A stretch of DNA of 64,000 bases from Candidatus Helarchaeota archaeon (GCA_019058315.1 JAHPZH010000005.1:160001-224000), one strand, 5' to 3'; shown: positions 22,040 to 30,090, counted from the stretch's first letter. Numbers and translations: made by a program. Notes: generated by a model not told the origin, from the sequence alone.

Positions 22040-23521
22040 TTATATAATTTTATCTTGTTTTAGAATTTCAAATAATTCAAGAGCTGACATCGCGGCTAAT
22101 TCAGTTCCTATACCCCAGCCACCAGCATCGGCAGAAGAGAGGTATAATCCTTCAATAGGTGTTTTTTGTGATGGTCTTTTGTGACCTACTTGATCAATAG
22201 TCTGACCAATCCCAGTTCCTGCACCTTCTTTACCCATTCTCTTTTCAAGGTAAACATCAGATACAAAATCGGTAAAAACAATATGTTCTTCAACTTCAGG
22301 CCATAATGATAATAGCGAATTCATGCAAGTCTTCTCCCACTTTTTACTATTAGTTTCACGTTCGGCCATTGTTAGGTTTGCAACTCCAAGTGTAGTGGTT
22401 ACTGTATGAATATTTTGACAACCTTCGGGAGCTAATTTCGGATCATGATTACTCACTGGAACAATTAACAAAGCACTTTTCTCTGGAATTTCTATTTCTT
22501 TACTATCAATAGCAGAACCGTCAAATTTTCCTCTCAAAGTCTCTAGAATTCTCATATCCATCGGTGGGACGTATGTAATCATTTTTTGGTCAGTTATTAT
22601 AGTATCTAAAGATATTTTTTGGCTGCATACTTGCCCGCCCCAAATTAAGCCTTTAATACGTTCAGTATATGCTTTATTAAAATTCTTTTCCCCCGCTAAT
22701 TTAAGGATTGTTGTTTTAATATCTGCATTTGAGATCACAATATCCGCTGGATAGAATTTATTATCAGGACCAGCCTCAATTCCTTTAGCCTTTCCATCTT
22801 CAATAACTATTTTATTTACCGTTCCCTCTTCACCTATAATGATTTTTCCTCCAGAACTTTCAATAGCCCTACAATAAGCTTCGGGAACGGCACCACAACC
22901 ACCAATTGGATAGCCCATCGAACGATTCATGCCATTAAGGCGGACACAACGAACAAATTCTCCCGCAGAAGTAATATCTGGAGCAGTGCCAAACATGACT
23001 CCACCTTGCATCATGTACATCATTTTTGTCATTGCGTATCTTGAACTATCAGGAATAACTTCATTTAAATAATCTATTAGCCTAACTTCATCTAATTTTT
23101 TTATTTCTTCAGGGGTCATTTCAATAAATTTTTGCATAATTTCTTTTCCAGGTGCGGGTTTTTTACTTTTAGTTGGTCTATCCCGTTTCTTCTTGCCTTT
23201 TTTTCTTTGACCGGAATAGGAAATCCAATTACCCATAATATTAATTCTTGGTCCTGGATTAACTGTGTGGCTCCATTCTACCGTTTGACCACATCTGTCT
23301 AGTATTTCGCCTAATGGACCTTTCTCACAATTGCTAATAATATGGCAACCAATGTCCATACGCCAAGTTCTTCCTTGTTCATCTTTTTTATTATATGATG
23401 CACAACGTCCTCCAAGGATCGTGTTTTGTTCAAATAAAATAATATCTGATTTACTTTCTTTACTAAGTAAAGCTCCAATACCTGAACCACCTATCCCGCT
23501 ACCAATTATTATGACTTTCAT
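22040..23521 (-). CDS. Phytoene desaturase/COG1233-like FAD oxidoreductase (paralog 2)
   Basis: VIIIGSGIGG, LGGRC, DIGCH, YPIGG, VISNAD, TPIEGLY; close paralog of 10914-12377. Confidence 0.88.
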   Translation of the reverse strand: MKVIIIGSGIGGSGIGALLSKESKSDIILFEQNTILGGRCASYNKKDEQGRTWRMDIGCHIISNCEKGPLGEILDRCGQTVEWSHTVNPGPRINIMGNWISYSGQRKKGKKKRDRPTKSKKPAPGKEIMQKFIEMTPEEIKKLDEVRLIDYLNEVIPDSSRYAMTKMMYMMQGGVMFGTAPDITSAGEFVRCVRLNGMNRSMGYPIGGCGAVPEAYCRAIESSGGKIIIGEEGTVNKIVIEDGKAKGIEAGPDNKFYPADIVISNADIKTTILKLAGEKNFNKAYTERIKGLIWGGQVCSQKISLDTIITDQKMITYVPPMDMRILETLRGKFDGSAIDSKEIEIPEKSALLIVPVSNHDPKLAPEGCQNIHTVTTTLGVANLTMAERETNSKKWEKTCMNSLLSLWPEVEEHIVFTDFVSDVYLEKRMGKEGAGTGIGQTIDQVGHKRPSQKTPIEGLYLSSADAGGWGIGTELAAMSALELFEILKQDKII

Positions 23522-23643: not shown

Positions 23644-24786
23644 ATGGAAGATTTGTTTTTTTCTGACAAAGAAATACGGTTACAAAAAGAAATTCGAGGA
23701 TTTCTAAAAAAAGAATTAGAACCAATAAAAGAGAATATTAACAAGAATGATGAAATCCCTCTTGAATTAATTAGAAAAATCGGGGCAAAGGGGTATTTTG
23801 GTCCATTGATTTCCAAAGAATATGGGGGTTCAGAATTAGGAATGATAAGTCACATGATCATCACTGAAGAAATTTCCAGATTAAATGTTGCCGTATCAGT
23901 TACACGGACTCCATGTATTTTAGATGGAATAACGCTATTTAGATACGGAACGAAGGAGCAAAAAGAAAAATATTTATCAGTCATAGCCAGAGCTGAAAAA
24001 ATTTGTGCAATTTGCATTACTGAAAAAGGAGCGGGAACAGATGTGGCAGGGATTCAAACAATAGCTGAAAAAAAGGGAGGAGAATATGTAATTAACGGAT
24101 CTAAGAGATTTATTACAAACGCAGGTTTAGCAGATTACTACTTTGTTTGGGCTTTAACCGATCAGAAAGTCAACCCCCGTGATGGACTTAGTATTTTTTT
24201 GGTGGAAAAAGATACTCCAGGCTTTATAACAGATAATCCATACGGATTAATGGGTTTAAGGGGAGTTAAAAATGGAACTCTTGAATTTGAAAATGTTTAT
24301 GTTCCTAAAGAAAATCTTATTGGAGAAGAGGGGAAAGGGTTCCAAATGTTAATGAAGACTTTTAATGTTGAGAGATTAACTCTAAGTTCTGAATGTAATG
24401 GCATATCACTAGCTGCATTTGAGGATTCAAAGAAATACGTCAGAGAAAGGATTCAGTTCGGAAAAAAAATCGCGACATTTCAAGCAATTCGTCTAAAAAT
24501 TGCTAAAATGGCAACAGAAATCCGTGCTGCAAGACTTTTAACTTACAGTTCTGCAAGACTCTGGGATTTAGGAAAAGAAGTAACCAAAGAAGCGTCCATG
24601 TCCAAAGCTTTTTCAAGTAAAACTGCTGTTGAAACTACAACCGAAGCAGTTCAAGTTCATGGCGGAGATGGATATACCGATGTTTACCCCGTAGAACGAT
24701 ATATGAGAGATGCGAAATTCTTTCAAATTGGCGGAGGAACTAGTGAGATACAAAATTTAATTATTGCTAGAGAAGAACTTAAATGA
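23644..24786 (+). CDS. Acyl-CoA dehydrogenase
   Basis: ITEKGAGTD, INGSKRFITN, RIQFGKKI, QVHGGDGY, ERYMRDAK, IGGGTSEIQ. Confidence 0.95.
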   Translation: MEDLFFSDKEIRLQKEIRGFLKKELEPIKENINKNDEIPLELIRKIGAKGYFGPLISKEYGGSELGMISHMIITEEISRLNVAVSVTRTPCILDGITLFRYGTKEQKEKYLSVIARAEKICAICITEKGAGTDVAGIQTIAEKKGGEYVINGSKRFITNAGLADYYFVWALTDQKVNPRDGLSIFLVEKDTPGFITDNPYGLMGLRGVKNGTLEFENVYVPKENLIGEEGKGFQMLMKTFNVERLTLSSECNGISLAAFEDSKKYVRERIQFGKKIATFQAIRLKIAKMATEIRAARLLTYSSARLWDLGKEVTKEASMSKAFSSKTAVETTTEAVQVHGGDGYTDVYPVERYMRDAKFFQIGGGTSEIQNLIIAREELK

Positions 24787-24831: not shown

Positions 24832-25764
24832 TCACTTCTTTTTAACGACAATTACTATCACAATAGTAATACCGATTATAACAGCAACAGCAATTCCTAT
24901 GATAAGTCCTGTGTTTGCTCCACTTTCCATGGTCATCAAGGCTAATAGTACTAATGGAAGTAAATTAGTGCCACCAGCATTTTTTGTAAGGTTCATTTCC
25001 CAAACCAGAACCCAACCTCCACTGTATGTATACCATCGACTACAATTTACAATTCCTCTATTATTGATAACTAATTCTTTCATGTGGTCTCCATTAGTCA
25101 TTCCATCCCATACTCTCCAGATTCCTTCAACATTTGGAGATGCAGGATTGCTTTGTGAAACTCCAGATCCGCCACCGCCATGATGTAACATTATTCCCCA
25201 CGTCGTATTTACAATTGTATGATTAGTATGCGTCCAGTTCATAGGAACACAAAACGGAAGAAAATATGTTAGTAAATATCCAGGTGTTATATTTACGTAG
25301 AAGTTATAAAGACCTTGACAATTTGAAATGCCACTCTGTTCCCATTGTCTAAATGAAGAATTATACGCACTTATGACCCAAGGAAGACTTACTCCCATAA
25401 ATTCACTAGTGAGTAAGCTCCAACCAGATGATTGATTATAATAATATACTAACGCCGTTATTAAATCTGCATACCAAAGCCAACCAGTCTCATCATATAA
25501 CAAAAAAGCCCAAGAGTTATATCCATAAGTATACTTAAAATACACTTTATCACAGCTATTCATAGGAATAGATCCAAATAAACTATTACCACCAACAGTA
25601 CAATTATATAGATAATTTCTGATTGTAGAAGAATTAAATCCATTACCCCCTTCTTGCCAAGGTGGTGGTGGTATTTGGGCGGATATTGATTGAATAGGAA
25701 GAAGGAATAGCATTGATGCAATCAAAGTAACTAACAGAGGTAGAAATAAATTATTTTTTTTCAT
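24832..25764 (-). CDS. Secreted, C-terminally membrane-anchored (likely glycosylated) surface protein
   Basis: Signal peptide MKKNNLFLPLLV...; many NxS/T sequons; C-terminal GGTNLL, hydrophobic stretch, TM and KKK. Confidence 0.8.
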   Translation of the reverse strand: MKKNNLFLPLLVTLIASMLFLLPIQSISAQIPPPPWQEGGNGFNSSTIRNYLYNCTVGGNSLFGSIPMNSCDKVYFKYTYGYNSWAFLLYDETGWLWYADLITALVYYYNQSSGWSLLTSEFMGVSLPWVISAYNSSFRQWEQSGISNCQGLYNFYVNITPGYLLTYFLPFCVPMNWTHTNHTIVNTTWGIMLHHGGGGSGVSQSNPASPNVEGIWRVWDGMTNGDHMKELVINNRGIVNCSRWYTYSGGWVLVWEMNLTKNAGGTNLLPLVLLALMTMESGANTGLIIGIAVAVIIGITIVIVIVVKKK

Positions 25765-25978: not shown

Positions 25979-26049
25979 ACTGGAATAAGGAGCGCATCCC
26001 TATCAATAATACATTAAATTTTTTTGTATTATTTCATTTTTCTTCCAGT
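25979..26049 (-). promoter_or_regulatory. Eukaryote-like SECIS element in the 3' UTR
   Basis: Minus strand: ACTGGAA GAAAA ATGA AATAATACA AAAAAATTTAA TGTATTATT GA TAGGGATGCGCTCCTTA TTCCAGT. This gives helix 1 (ACTGGAA/TTCCAGT), an AUGA/GA core, a perfect 9-bp helix 2 and an A-rich apical loop. Begins 1 nt after the TAG stop. Confidence 0.85.
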
Positions 26050-26050
26050 T

Positions 26051-26374
26051 CTATTTTAAATCACCGATTATTAGATAACCTCTTCCTTCATCTATTTTTC
26101 CATCAATTATTATTTTTTCTGCCATAAATAGAAAATATGCTGCATCTTCATCTACAAAAACTTGCAATCCATTTATAGTTCCTAATAATTCTAACTCATT
26201 CAATCTTGATGTATCCTCAAAATGGATCGATGTCCAGTGTGCTCTTTGAGTAGTACATCAAGAAAACCGCTCAAATTCTGTTATCACCAATATTTCATTA
26301 TTTTCTTTATTGTTTTTTAGTCGTTCAGTGATCACACGTTTGGCAAGGTCTGTCAACTCAATCTTTATAGTCAT
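26051..26374 (-). CDS. HesB/IscA-like selenoprotein (107 aa; TGA at 26258-26260 read as Sec39)
   Basis: MTIKIELTDLAKRVITERLKNNKENNEILVITEFERFS-U-CTTQRAHWTSIHFEDTSRLNELELLGTINGLQVFVDEDAAYFLFMAEKIIIDGKIDEGRGYLIIGDLK*. The frame stays open for 68 codons after the TGA and a SECIS follows. Confidence 0.85.
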
Positions 26375-26456: not shown

Positions 26457-26744
26457 TTAATCTTTTATACCAGGTCCTTTAATAACACCTTCATGGTCAT
26501 CATAAGGGATTTGACGAATTAACGCCCAATTTTTTACTGCTCTGGAGTAAATTCGAACATCCTTAATATCGTCATATGCTCCGAAATAAACTACAACACT
26601 ACAATCTTTATCTTTGGTCTTGAATTTTCCAGCAATTTTTTTGATGAAAATTGGTTCATCTTCTATATCCATTTGAATTTTAGAATTCTTAGATAATAAT
26701 TCAATTGCAAGATCAATACCTGTCTTAATATCATCTTCTTTCAT
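26457..26744 (-). CDS. Small hypothetical protein, tandem paralog of 26760-27026
   Basis: Shared MK..DI..GI, NSK...D and F..K..GKF pattern; GGAG upstream. Confidence 0.75.
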   Translation of the reverse strand: MKEDDIKTGIDLAIELLSKNSKIQMDIEDEPIFIKKIAGKFKTKDKDCSVVVYFGAYDDIKDVRIYSRAVKNWALIRQIPYDDHEGVIKGPGIKD

Positions 26745-27142: not shown

Positions 27143-28633
27143 TTATTTTGATAATTTTTCAAAAAGAATTAAAGCACTATCTGCAGCAAGTTCCGCTCCA
27201 ATTCCGTGCATGCCAGTATCGGCTCCAACAACATAAAGATTTTTTATTGGGAGCTCCATTGGGGGTCTAAATTTTCCAACTTGATCTACAGTTTGCCCTA
27301 TTCCTATAACATTACCACCTTGTCCTGCAAATTTTTCAATTTCGGCGGGAGTCGTTATCTCCTTCCACATTACATGGTCTTCCATTTGTGGGAATATGTC
27401 CAATAACCCATTGTAAATTGCATCTGCCCATTTATCATAATCGCAATTACCTTCAGATGGGTTAGCTGGAACACCAGAACCTCCAAAAATTAATTGCTTT
27501 CCTTCAGGAGCCGATGTTGGGTCGAGATTAGATACGACAGGAACCATAATCATATAATGCTTTTCGGGAATATAGTTTTGAAAAGCTTCAGATTTTAAAA
27601 TTTCACCCACCGAAATTCTGGACATTATTTCATCAGTTTTAATTTCTCCACTCATTATTTTAGAAACAATTTCTTGATCAATACCAAATTCCTTACCGAA
27701 TTGTTCTACAGCTCTTGGCAAATCATCAAAATTAACATACATAAACATATTTTCTTCCGTAATTTTCTCATCGAGGGCAACTTTAACCATTAAAGTTGCT
27801 GCAGAAAACGAATAATTTTTTACTTTTTGAACAAAATCCTTTGAAAAATATTTTTCTCCGACTAAATTCAAAGTGGTCGCTTTAAGTCCAGCATTTGAAA
27901 TTACTATATCGGATTCTATAAATTCTCCATCATCTAATTCAACGCCAGTCGCTTTATTTTTTTCAACAATTATTTTCTTTACTTTTGTTTCTGTTTTTAC
28001 TTTACCTTTATCTTGGACTATAGAGTCACAATATGCACTAGGAATAGCAATACAACCACCTGTTGGATATCCACTACTTCTATTATTCATCATCTCTTTT
28101 TGACAAATAATGAATTCGCCAGTGCTAGTGGCTTGTTGAGTAACAAAATAGAGCCCACAAAAATAGGAAATTAGTGCTTGTGCCTTTGGATCATCAGTGT
28201 AACGTCCAACAAATTCATCAATGGGAACGTACATTAATTTCTCAATTTCCTCATCTGAAAATTTCAATACATCACTATATAATTTAATAAAATTGCCAAG
28301 ATCTTTACTACTGAAATTTAGTTTCCCAACATCCCGAGGAAACTTAATGATTTGACCATTAAAATGAAATTTTGGAAGTGGTCGGCAGTAATTCCATTTA
28401 ATGGAATTATTTTCAATGATTTGTGCTATTTTACCTAATCTACCCTTATCGCAGTTTGCTATTAAATGGCAACCTACATCTAGTTTAAAACCCTCCTTTT
28501 CATAGGTAGATAATCTTCCGCCTACAAGTGAATTTTTCTCGAATAACGTCACATCAAAACCGGAATGTTGTAATAATGCGCCCACTCCACTACCACCTAC
28601 GCCAGAGCCTATAATATTAACTTTTGTTTTCAT
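27143..28633 (-). CDS. Phytoene desaturase/COG1233-like FAD oxidoreductase (paralog 3)
   Basis: IIGSGVGG, VGGR, DVGCH, YPTGG, VISNAG, DPTSAPEGKQL, LPIKNLYVVG. Confidence 0.88.
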   Translation of the reverse strand: MKTKVNIIGSGVGGSGVGALLQHSGFDVTLFEKNSLVGGRLSTYEKEGFKLDVGCHLIANCDKGRLGKIAQIIENNSIKWNYCRPLPKFHFNGQIIKFPRDVGKLNFSSKDLGNFIKLYSDVLKFSDEEIEKLMYVPIDEFVGRYTDDPKAQALISYFCGLYFVTQQATSTGEFIICQKEMMNNRSSGYPTGGCIAIPSAYCDSIVQDKGKVKTETKVKKIIVEKNKATGVELDDGEFIESDIVISNAGLKATTLNLVGEKYFSKDFVQKVKNYSFSAATLMVKVALDEKITEENMFMYVNFDDLPRAVEQFGKEFGIDQEIVSKIMSGEIKTDEIMSRISVGEILKSEAFQNYIPEKHYMIMVPVVSNLDPTSAPEGKQLIFGGSGVPANPSEGNCDYDKWADAIYNGLLDIFPQMEDHVMWKEITTPAEIEKFAGQGGNVIGIGQTVDQVGKFRPPMELPIKNLYVVGADTGMHGIGAELAADSALILFEKLSK

Positions 28634-28743: not shown

Positions 28744-30090
28744 TTAATGTTGTGGTTTTTGGGAAGGTTTAGCTTCGTGATGAAAGACAATAGGTTTAAA
28801 AGACATTGAGAAGGCAGTTATTGCTAATATTGTAGCTACCATAGCGAACCAGGATGAGCCGAAGGTTCCGAGGATAAAACTTCCTAATAATGGACCTGTA
28901 ATTTGTGCAAGATTGTCTAGTGAAGTGTTTAAACCACCCATTTTTCCTTGTTCCTTTGGGCTTACGGATCTGCTTTGAAATGAAATTAATACACCTCTTG
29001 TACATGAAGCAGCATAGCTCACAAGCAAAAGAACCAGAAGGAAACCAATAAAATTCTGAACGAATACCAATGCAAAAAAGGCTATAACAAAACAAGTTAA
29101 ACCAATTTGAGATGTTCGTTTATCACCAAATTTCTTTAATGTAGGTTCAAAAATGTAAAAACGAATAATTAAACGAGCAACACCTGAAAGAGACATATAA
29201 AAGCCTATTTCGTCTGGACCCATATTCAATTTTATATCAGCAAAAAGTGAAATATTTGAAATAAAGACCATAAAAGATATTGTGTGAAAAGCCCATTGTA
29301 TAAGCAAGAACATAGCTAGCCCATTTTTCCATATTGGCTGGTTTTTTGTTTCTAATTTTATTGAAGTTGGCTTGATGGGGATATTTTGAAATCCCTTTTC
29401 CTTTTTGGGCTCCGATTGGGTTTTTACAGGTGCTGATTCTTTTAGATATAAAAATGTAACAATTATTGTAATGAGAGAAAGACATGCAGAAAATAATCCA
29501 GGAGCTATAATGCCCCATCTAGTATAAAGAAATCCTCCTAATGCAGGTCCAAATAAAGATGCAAGAACATGCGCTACACCTACATTAGTCATTTGGGAAG
29601 CACGATGTTTAGGTGGAACAACATCTCCAATTACAGCTTTTGCTATAGGGAAGTTTCCGCCGAAAATTCCATCAATAATTCGACTAATTAATACCATTTC
29701 ATAACTAGTTGAAAAAGCTAACATTACAAATGCAGCTAATGTCCCAAATTGACTAATTAACAATAAAGGTCTTCTTCCATATTTGTCACTTAAACTCCCT
29801 AAAATTGGACCGAAAAAGAATCCAAAAACTGCATTCGTTGAAAGAGCCATGCCAACCATCAAAGCCACAGTTGGAGAATAAGGAAATAAATCAAAGATCG
29901 GTTGTAGTTCAGGTATAGGTAGGTTTAATTCTTTAATAAAAAATGGAAGAAATGGAATAATGAGGGTAAAACCTAAAATATCTATAAAAACAGCTATCCA
30001 TAAGGGAAATAGACCTGGAAATTTTATTTTTGCTATCTTAAGATCGAGTGGTTTTATGTCAGTTATTTCATCATTCATAAATAATACCAA
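28744..30090 (-). CDS. MFS transporter (TetA/DHA1-like)
   Basis: GSLSDKYGRRPLLL (motif A), RIIDG, GPALGG. Confidence 0.92.
   Translation of the reverse strand: MVLFMNDEITDIKPLDLKIAKIKFPGLFPLWIAVFIDILGFTLIIPFLPFFIKELNLPIPELQPIFDLFPYSPTVALMVGMALSTNAVFGFFFGPILGSLSDKYGRRPLLLISQFGTLAAFVMLAFSTSYEMVLISRIIDGIFGGNFPIAKAVIGDVVPPKHRASQMTNVGVAHVLASLFGPALGGFLYTRWGIIAPGLFSACLSLITIIVTFLYLKESAPVKTQSEPKKEKGFQNIPIKPTSIKLETKNQPIWKNGLAMFLLIQWAFHTISFMVFISNISLFADIKLNMGPDEIGFYMSLSGVARLIIRFYIFEPTLKKFGDKRTSQIGLTCFVIAFFALVFVQNFIGFLLVLLLVSYAASCTRGVLISFQSRSVSPKEQGKMGGLNTSLDNLAQITGPLLGSFILGTFGSSWFAMVATILAITAFSMSFKPIVFHHEAKPSQKPQH

Follow-up and report, generated by a model that had tools for sequence, protein, structure and literature searches.

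A predicted HesB-fold selenoprotein with a vicinal Sec-Cys pair and a downstream lokiSECIS in a Lokiarchaeia-like Asgard archaeon

Does a lone TGA inside a short archaeal reading frame end the protein, or is it read as selenocysteine (Sec, U)? The question is raised by positions 26051 to 26374 of a 64,000-nucleotide (nt) stretch of the genome of a Candidatus Helarchaeota archaeon (GCA_019058315.1 JAHPZH010000005.1:160001-224000; this whole stretch is called the window below), where an earlier reading of the DNA alone, here the original prediction, had placed a hidden selenoprotein of the HesB/IscA type. The analysis presented here indicates that the locus is very probably a previously unannotated, monocistronic selenoprotein gene of a Lokiarchaeia-like Asgard archaeon. 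An Asgard origin is supported by a bona fide actin (448 bits) encoded in the genome, none being found in 14 control prokaryotes.

The frame runs on the minus strand from an ATG at 26374, comprises 108 codons and contains a single in-frame TGA, at codon 39, which is followed by TGT. The coordinates originally proposed for the start, for the TGA (26258-26260) and for the terminal TAG (26051-26053) are correct, and a Cys does stand directly after the TGA. The count of 68 further sense codons was one too high, however, as the Cys is followed by 67, which gives 68 in total (residues 40-107). This Cys40 is the sole Cys of the 107-residue protein. The features of the frame are the following.

26051..26374, minus strand: coding sequence of the predicted selenoprotein, 107 residues, ATG at 26374-26372 and TAG at 26053-26051 (ortholog identity of 87% and 70%, substitution rates, single-domain structural model)
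26258..26260, minus strand: UGA codon 39, predicted to be read as Sec (invariant in six orthologs; Cys in TGA-free homologs)
26255..26257, minus strand: UGU codon 40, the vicinal Cys (kept in the orthologs with U-C)

The mechanical listing of open reading frames (ORFs), with a threshold of 40 amino acids (aa), holds at this place only a 50-aa fragment starting at TTG (26051..26203), which corresponds to the C-terminal piece of the protein, while the 38 codons before the TGA fall under the threshold. The remark that the ORF track is empty here is therefore right for the full frame but not for this fragment. That standard annotation misses the gene is borne out by the databases, where it takes the form of a 38-aa stub, a 50-aa stub, or a protein with a spurious Trp. 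The database fragments end or start at the TGA: P0017 holds the 38 aa before it, and the C-terminal stubs P0008, P0006 and P0012 (50-71 aa) come from the part behind it.

The first line of evidence is the conservation of the TGA itself. The pair TGA-TGT is invariant across six orthologs (the window gene, L024, L025, L056, L057/L058 and L059), and since these orthologs come from independent sources, namely independent metagenome assemblies (P0002, P0003), a Logan contig (L056), two NCBI assemblies (L057/L058) and an ENA contig (L059), its presence is far beyond chance. The two near-full-length database proteins, P0002 and P0003, share 87% and 70% identity with the window protein. Their recorded sequences, like that of P0019, are reproduced from the DNA only when TGA is translated as Trp; Trp39 in these entries is thus an artefact of gene calling with translation table 4, and the underlying DNA reads TGA-TGT. 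Codon-level comparison of the orthologs gave ratios of non-synonymous to synonymous substitution rates (dN/dS) of 0.13-0.19 for codons 1-38 and of 0.12-0.20 for codons 40-107. The low values on either side of the TGA indicate that both halves are translated and under purifying selection.

These data bear on the simplest alternative, that the gene is a pseudogene, a Cys form hit by a nonsense mutation from TGT or TGC to TGA, or that the TGA is an assembly error. The splitting of the frame by standard ORF calling and the existence of Cys-Cys homologs in related genomes would fit a pseudogene. Nevertheless, the identical TGA is kept in six orthologs whose proteins have diverged by up to 30% (their identities of 70-88% exclude a single clonal contaminant), the dN/dS is as low downstream of the TGA as upstream, and the gene is followed by a conserved selenocysteine insertion sequence (SECIS) with compensatory changes. 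An error of assembly is countered by the same bases in independent contigs. Contigs of a separate study, approximately 96-97% identical to the window, span positions 26254-26269; they carry substitutions nearby, but TGA and TGT are unchanged and there are no indels, which bears on the base-call check at 26258-26260 that had been proposed along with the gene. We therefore consider a pseudogene or an assembly error extremely improbable.

In 400 genomes of the phylum, searched in all six frames, distant relatives at 22-32% identity were found, and the pattern at codon 39 extends to them. Only four columns of the alignment are invariant; the Sec column is among them and holds U or C in every homolog. 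It is TGA in the distant relatives L016, L018 and L019, and Cys in L015, L017, P0004, P0005, P0009-P0011, P0013, P0015, P0016, P0018 and P0020; the P-numbered Cys forms comprise every full-length match of an exhaustive profile search. Neither Trp nor Arg nor Gly was found at this column among the homologs examined, so the expectation of Cys or TGA at position 39, with conservation on both sides, agrees with all of them. The residue after the Sec column varies in the wider family (C, K, R, S or Y), and the vicinal Cys40 therefore appears to be a trait of the subfamily and not an invariant of the family. The vicinal Sec-Cys pair of the original prediction thus stands for the orthologs, which all keep U39-C40, but needs this refinement for the family as a whole. 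The window-gene family is rare, with 18 matches among 1.84 billion representatives in the exhaustive search. Two long proteins, P0007 (866 aa) and P0014 (3406 aa), matched positions 14-63 of the profile only and were taken as composition-driven matches. A search over genome and metagenome contigs with the single window protein returned no related loci.

The translation of TGA as Trp in the gene calls of P0002, P0003 and P0019 could also be taken at face value, with a genome-wide or context-dependent reassignment that makes UGA39 a Trp, Cys or Gly codon. The use of TGA elsewhere in the genome makes this clearly unlikely. TGA closes 15.4% of the ORFs of at least 250 aa, and the extensions beyond TGA stops are as short (median 6 codons) as those beyond TAA and TAG (7-8 codons); there is no global reassignment, and TGA is otherwise a normal stop. 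Moreover, the homologs have Cys at the column and never Trp or Gly, and a reassigned codon fits poorly with a SECIS of its own and the complete Sec machinery.

The presence of this machinery, which the original prediction had named as a check, was confirmed in the genome (G000 in our numbering): it encodes tRNA-Sec (63.5 bits), an adjoining SepSecS (482 bits), EFSec in the same cluster (287 bits), a PSTK-like gene (170 bits, E 1e-49, below the equivalog cut-off of 290 bits) and a SelD that itself contains Sec. Two loci are concerned.

G000 contig C5:124363-128115: EFSec, SepSecS, tRNA-Sec and a SelD/AIR-synthase-like paralog in a row
G000 contig C11:696903-697751: main SelD, with its own in-frame TGA

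By analogy with the known pathway, Sec-tRNA(Sec) would be made by PSTK and SepSecS with selenophosphate from SelD, and would be used when the ribosome meets UGA39. The Sec-specific elongation factor would deliver it, guided by a SECIS with a kink-turn AUGA/GA core 13 nt past the UAG.

Such an element lies immediately downstream of the gene. It begins 13 nt 3' of the stop codon and approximately 220 nt 3' of the UGA, at 26037..26003, and is of the kind named in the original prediction, which had not located it: the eukaryote-like SECIS in the 3' untranslated region known from Lokiarchaeota. Its parts are these.

26003..26037, minus strand: lokiSECIS core and upper helix P2 (strict pattern, fold, orthologs, covariance model)
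26037-26034, minus strand: AUGA of the SECIS core
26033-26025 and 26013-26005, minus strand: arms of the 9-bp SECIS stem, nine Watson-Crick pairs
26024-26014, minus strand: 11-nt A-rich apical loop, AAAAAAUUUAA
26004-26003, minus strand: GA of the SECIS core

The described lokiSECIS consists of AUGA, a 9-bp stem, an 11-nt loop that begins with adenines and ends with an 'ultraconserved' G, and GA (PMC4989117). The window element shares with it, and with the type I eSECIS-like model (PMC11227280), the AUGA/GA core, the 9-bp stem, the 11-nt loop with its run of A and the position near the stop codon. The strict pattern of this element has four matches on both strands of the 5.8-Mb genome, including the one described here, as compared to a mean of 1.17 matches for decoy cores of the same composition and 0-2 matches in block shuffles. 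All four matches lie directly 3' of TGA-containing frames; the other three follow an HdrA-like gene and two small frames, and in the latter two the AUGA begins 12 nt after the stop. A covariance model trained on eight SECIS elements of other genes only recovered 26003-26037 (minus strand) with 30.1 bits (E 3e-4) as the only significant match in the window, the runner-up scoring 16.8 bits. Among the orthologs the element is conserved above synonymous sites, and one P2 stem pair forms a compensatory series of A-U, G-C and G-U; a covariation count on the training set is partly circular, as its elements were picked by pairing. Rfam reported no SECIS, whether run with gathering or with E-value thresholds; as no Asgard-type SECIS was among its matches, this says little about the element.

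The distribution of the element among the homologs largely follows the TGA. The distant TGA forms L016, L018 and L019 carry an AUGA-helix-GA element after the gene, while the Cys-Cys form L017 does not. Another Cys-Cys homolog, L015 (genome G125), has a hairpin with AUGA, an 8-bp stem and GA approximately 12-45 nt after the stop, with a short loop that is not A-rich. This hairpin may be a decaying SECIS left behind after the replacement of Sec by Cys.

In an AT-rich genome a stem-loop after a gene may arise by chance or serve as a terminator, in which case the TGA would be bypassed inefficiently or not at all and only a 38-aa peptide would be made. Relaxed SECIS patterns indeed match hundreds of times by chance (152 and 437 matches in our scans, which is why the evidence was limited to the strict pattern and the covariance model), and a T-rich tract lies downstream of the element, near 25937-25926. 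The chance of a strict match within approximately 60 nt of this particular stop is, however, only about 6e-6 (approximately 1.2 expected per 11.6 Mb). HdrA and other TGA-containing genes are followed by elements with the same AUGA/GA core, 9+11+9 geometry and run of A, and the purifying selection on the 68 codons after the TGA is at odds with a peptide that ends before them. A terminator or a chance stem-loop is thus a very improbable account of the hairpins.

What kind of protein does the frame encode? The AlphaFold2 (AF2) model, built from an eight-sequence alignment, is a single compact domain (pLDDT 86.6, pTM 0.75), in which residue 39 lies in the loop joining the strands 27-37 and 44-54. 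In comparisons with Foldseek and VIA-align, the top seven structures all have the IscA/SufA/DsrR/HesB (PF01521) fold (Z 9.0-6.6), the next match being at Z 3.3. The proposal that both halves belong to one HesB/IscA-type domain is in line with this model. A search of PDB sequences with the family profile gave no match. When the family profile is aligned with canonical Asgard IscA by hhalign, U39 falls on the Cys of GGCAGF (GGCxGF; E 4.9e-5, probability 68%), as had been supposed when the TGA was assigned to the loop where IscA/HesB proteins carry Cys. The model and the alignment together place Sec39 at the first canonical ligand Cys of IscA, in a beta-hairpin loop, followed by Cys40.

Canonical Asgard IscA proteins also carry a C-terminal TCGCG. 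A C-terminal CxC is absent from the window protein, in which no Cys follows residue 40, and from the whole clade; the original prediction was right on this point also. The genome has no canonical PF01521 gene, and canonical IscA is rare in the phylum, being found in 4 of the 121 genomes searched. The window protein, of the IscA fold but with one Sec-Cys site as all that is left of the ligands, thus stands in a genome without canonical IscA.

The closest structural matches of the window protein include IscA/SufA proteins (PF01521; PDB 1r94, 2d2a and 1x0g; Z 9.0, 8.2 and 7.1 for alignments of 85-94 residues) and DsrR (PDB 2k4z), an IscA-like protein of sulfur oxidisers, with Z 8.3. The window protein differs from IscA/SufA in the missing C-terminal CxC and in the vicinal Cys, which replaces the Ser/Ala-Gly after the ligand residue. 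To our knowledge, DsrR lacks the cluster-ligand cysteines of IscA altogether, unlike the window protein, which keeps the invariant Sec/Cys.

One could still see in the protein a classical A-type Fe-S carrier, an IscA/SufA orthologue in which Sec replaces one cluster ligand. The fold, the alignment of Sec with an IscA ligand Cys and a niche left open by the lack of a canonical PF01521 gene in the genome would all suit such a role. The C-terminal CxC that defines these carriers is missing throughout the clade, though, and the score on PF01521 is 13.5 bits (E 0.084) as compared to a gathering cut-off of 26.3. The scarcity of canonical IscA in the phylum points the same way, and DsrR indicates that the fold can exist without cluster ligands. 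An A-type carrier is accordingly an unlikely identity for the window protein, if one that deserves a hearing.

A HesB-related selenoprotein outside the canonical carriers is the better supported identity, and the next question is to which family it belongs. HesB-like selenoproteins of the TIGR01911 family (HesB_rel_seleno) are known from many anaerobic bacteria and from Methanococcus maripaludis, where MMJJ_08070 was verified by 75Se labelling (PMC1794560, PMC11097638, PMC13188914); the statement that such proteins occur in Methanococcus and some bacteria agrees with these papers. Like the window protein, they are small IscA-related selenoproteins with Sec and Cys variants, and one clade member, P0015, matches the TIGR01911 model (E 1.8e-4). 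TIGR01911 is also the best NCBIfam match of the window protein (P0001), and when the entire genome was scanned the locus scored 13.3 bits. On the other hand, their motif is UxGP and not UCTT as here, and the Methanococcus SECIS is of the GAA_A type, as opposed to the eukaryote-like lokiSECIS of the window gene.

A closer relative is the CC/Se motif family (NF041239, Moor_selen_rel; PF28096, CC_Se_fam). The first indication was a precomputed Pfam tag, PF28096, on P0019, and three members of the window clade match NF041239 below threshold, with 19-24 bits. A scan of the phylum with NF041239 revealed separate loci in 11 genomes, eight of which have one TGA, within the motif FERTYxxUCG. These TGA genes are listed below, with the genomes in the corresponding order.

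CC_Se_fam/NF041239-type TGA genes: L060, L061, L063, L064, L066, L067, L068 and L069, in genomes G130, G282, G133, G132, G131, G141, G142 and G125

These are eight other genomes of the same class and order, and a lokiSECIS stands downstream of most of the genes. NF041239 is matched by all eight aligned members, by L060 with 45 bits and thus above the cut-off, and relatives carry PF28096. Alignment by hhalign of the window-clade profile with the profile of these Asgard CC_Se_fam proteins gave a probability of 97.5% (E 5.5e-12), with U-C on U-C. On the strength of this match, the window gene belongs to a divergent sister clade of the CC/Se motif family, itself a HesB-related family. Both groups have approximately 90-110 aa, place Sec/Cys-Cys after a FER-like strand (FERTYxxUCG in the CC/Se members, EFERFSUC here) and, in Asgard archaea, have a lokiSECIS with a side hairpin downstream. 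They differ in that the Asgard CC/Se genes share only approximately 22% identity with the window gene and have a C-terminal GW/FxxFKRL motif that is absent here. Moorella thermoacetica is where the CC/Se family was first predicted; Table 1 of PMC13188914 gives it as a Moorella-type family with the motif CxxU and does not mark it as archaeal. The HesB-like identity of the original prediction is therefore supported as regards the IscA/HesB fold, but the nearest curated family is NF041239/PF28096 and not TIGR01911 of Methanococcus. Since the selenoprotein family in question is already curated, the gene, a divergent member of it, is a modest addition to the Asgard selenoproteome.

Several observations weigh against the identification of the locus as a selenoprotein gene of this HesB-related group. 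Next to the low PF01521 score given above, the TIGR01911 match reaches 14.9 bits (E 0.03) for a cut-off of 66.35 and ends at residue 39, and these two scores rule out membership in either family at the curated thresholds. The window protein itself has no match to NF041239 at E<=10 (cut-off 40 bits), and the hhalign link to canonical IscA has a probability of 68% only. The window, L024 and L057 have A as the last loop nucleotide of the SECIS, and L025 and L056 have U, where the described lokiSECIS and all eight comparison elements end the loop with G. The SECIS-like hairpin after the Cys-Cys gene L015 makes the correlation between SECIS and TGA imperfect. Finally, no conserved gene neighbourhood constrains the function: synteny is confined to close orthologs, and the neighbours of distant homologs are unrelated (pirin, WD40, DUF169, aconitase-like proteins, peptidases, a P-type ATPase).

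The function of the protein can be discussed in terms of its Sec-Cys site, where Sec39, exposed on a loop, would act as a nucleophile or a ligand. Proteins of the IscA fold work as dimers, and for this reason a role in metal or cluster handling is favoured, in which the two Sec-Cys loops of a dimer would bind and hand on a soft metal, iron or Fe-S(e) species. We take this to be the most likely role, while giving it somewhat less than an even chance. Mammalian thioredoxin reductase has a vicinal Cys-Sec redox centre in its C-terminal GCUG. In both proteins Sec and Cys would be adjacent on an exposed flexible segment and an eight-membered selenylsulfide ring may form, although in the reductase the order is C-U, the site lies in a C-terminal tail and the fold is unrelated, as opposed to U-C in an internal loop here. 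A Sec-Cys selenylsulfide redox couple is a somewhat less probable alternative. A relay of sulfur or selenium is a more doubtful suggestion. The redox or Se-carrier role that the original prediction had suggested is still an inference. Only U39 and C40 are available as ligands, and classical A-type carriage of a cluster by three Cys is therefore unlikely.

The SECIS of the window gene appears to be part of a larger structure. In the minimum free energy (MFE) fold, a basal helix, P1, encloses both the SECIS helix P2 and a further hairpin, P3. The additional parts are as follows.

26043..26048, minus strand: 5' strand of basal helix P1, CUGGAA (pairs with 25985-25980 in the MFE fold)
25980..25985, minus strand: 3' strand of basal helix P1, UUCCAG (MFE fold, orthologs)
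25987..26001, minus strand: side hairpin P3, AGGGA-UGCGC-UCCUU, with UGC in the loop (1 nt after the GA of the SECIS core; kept in orthologs)

All six pairs of P1 are kept in five orthologs, with one compensatory change from G-C to A-U in L056, and 97.9% of the cells of these orthologs pair in the extended element, as compared to 29-58% for slid controls. The side hairpin was followed through 13 SECIS elements (those of the window, L016, L018, L019, L060, L061, L063, L066, L067 and L069, and G000 C3:41555, C5:241411 and C10:42157). A GC-containing hairpin lies 0-5 nt from the SECIS core in 11 of the 13 (background 7.1%), and UGC stands in the loop of the side hairpin in 10 (genome background 0.46%). 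A side hairpin with UGC in its loop, set within a basal helix, goes unmentioned in the main text of PMC4989117 and of PMC11227280.

Taken together, these observations lead to a tentative proposal in two parts, which we hold as a whole to be rather more apt to fail than to stand. A HesB-fold family, made up of the window clade and of CC_Se_fam in eight other Lokiarchaeia genomes, may be widespread in Asgard archaea and have been missed by the published surveys of their selenoproteins; and the Asgard SECIS may be a three-helix element, whose UGC hairpin would be a second determinant for an archaeal SECIS-binding factor. If this were true, Asgard selenoproteomes would be systematically under-counted. 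The published accounts considered here list no such protein for Asgard archaea: the 2024 survey of Asgard archaea lists seven selenoprotein families, none of them HesB-like or of CC/Se type (PMC11227280), the 2026 review lists eleven archaeal families, none HesB-like or of CC/Se type in Asgard (PMC13188914), all these families having been found through homology with known ones, and a HesB-like selenoprotein is not mentioned in the 2021 paper on Asgard recoding. Divergent small selenoproteins thus escape both standard annotation and searches seeded by homology. The module from UGA to SECIS, approximately 220 nt long, would be a compact natural test case for the Methanococcus reporter system (PMC9622424), the side hairpin included.

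The surroundings of the gene in the window deserve a brief description. The flanking genes, a 95-aa ORF upstream (26457-26744, minus strand) and a 310-aa ORF downstream (24832-25764, minus strand), have no Pfam family; both are syntenic with the selenoprotein gene in L025 (71% identity) and L024 (85%). Two paralogous genes of the flavin amine-oxidase/phytoene-desaturase-like type (22040-23521 and 27143-28633, both on the minus strand) flank the region. An acyl-CoA dehydrogenase (23644-24786, plus strand) and a major facilitator superfamily (MFS) transporter (28744-30090, minus strand) are nearby, and no link of these to the selenoprotein was found.

Two further candidate selenoproteins were observed in the genome. 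The first has 137 aa and the motif ...SAI-U-GTGGSD... (C5:240985-241398, plus strand; L053:286-696); a strict lokiSECIS begins 12 nt after its TAG (AUGA at C5:241411) and is followed by a hairpin with UGC in the loop, inside a basal helix. It matches Fe-S_biosyn weakly (E 0.12), its Sec lies no more than one residue away from the column of U39 (by hhalign, with E 0.01 and a probability of only 4%), and it may be a second, more divergent paralog of the HesB fold. The second is a small membrane-like frame (C10:42173-42442, minus strand; L054:374-643) that has no Pfam match; its motif is H-V-U-P-L-C (UxxC), a further TGA stands in frame, and a strict lokiSECIS begins 12 nt after its terminal TGA (AUGA at C10:42157). 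By its motif it is perhaps a selenoprotein among the DsbB- or VKOR-like thiol oxidoreductases.

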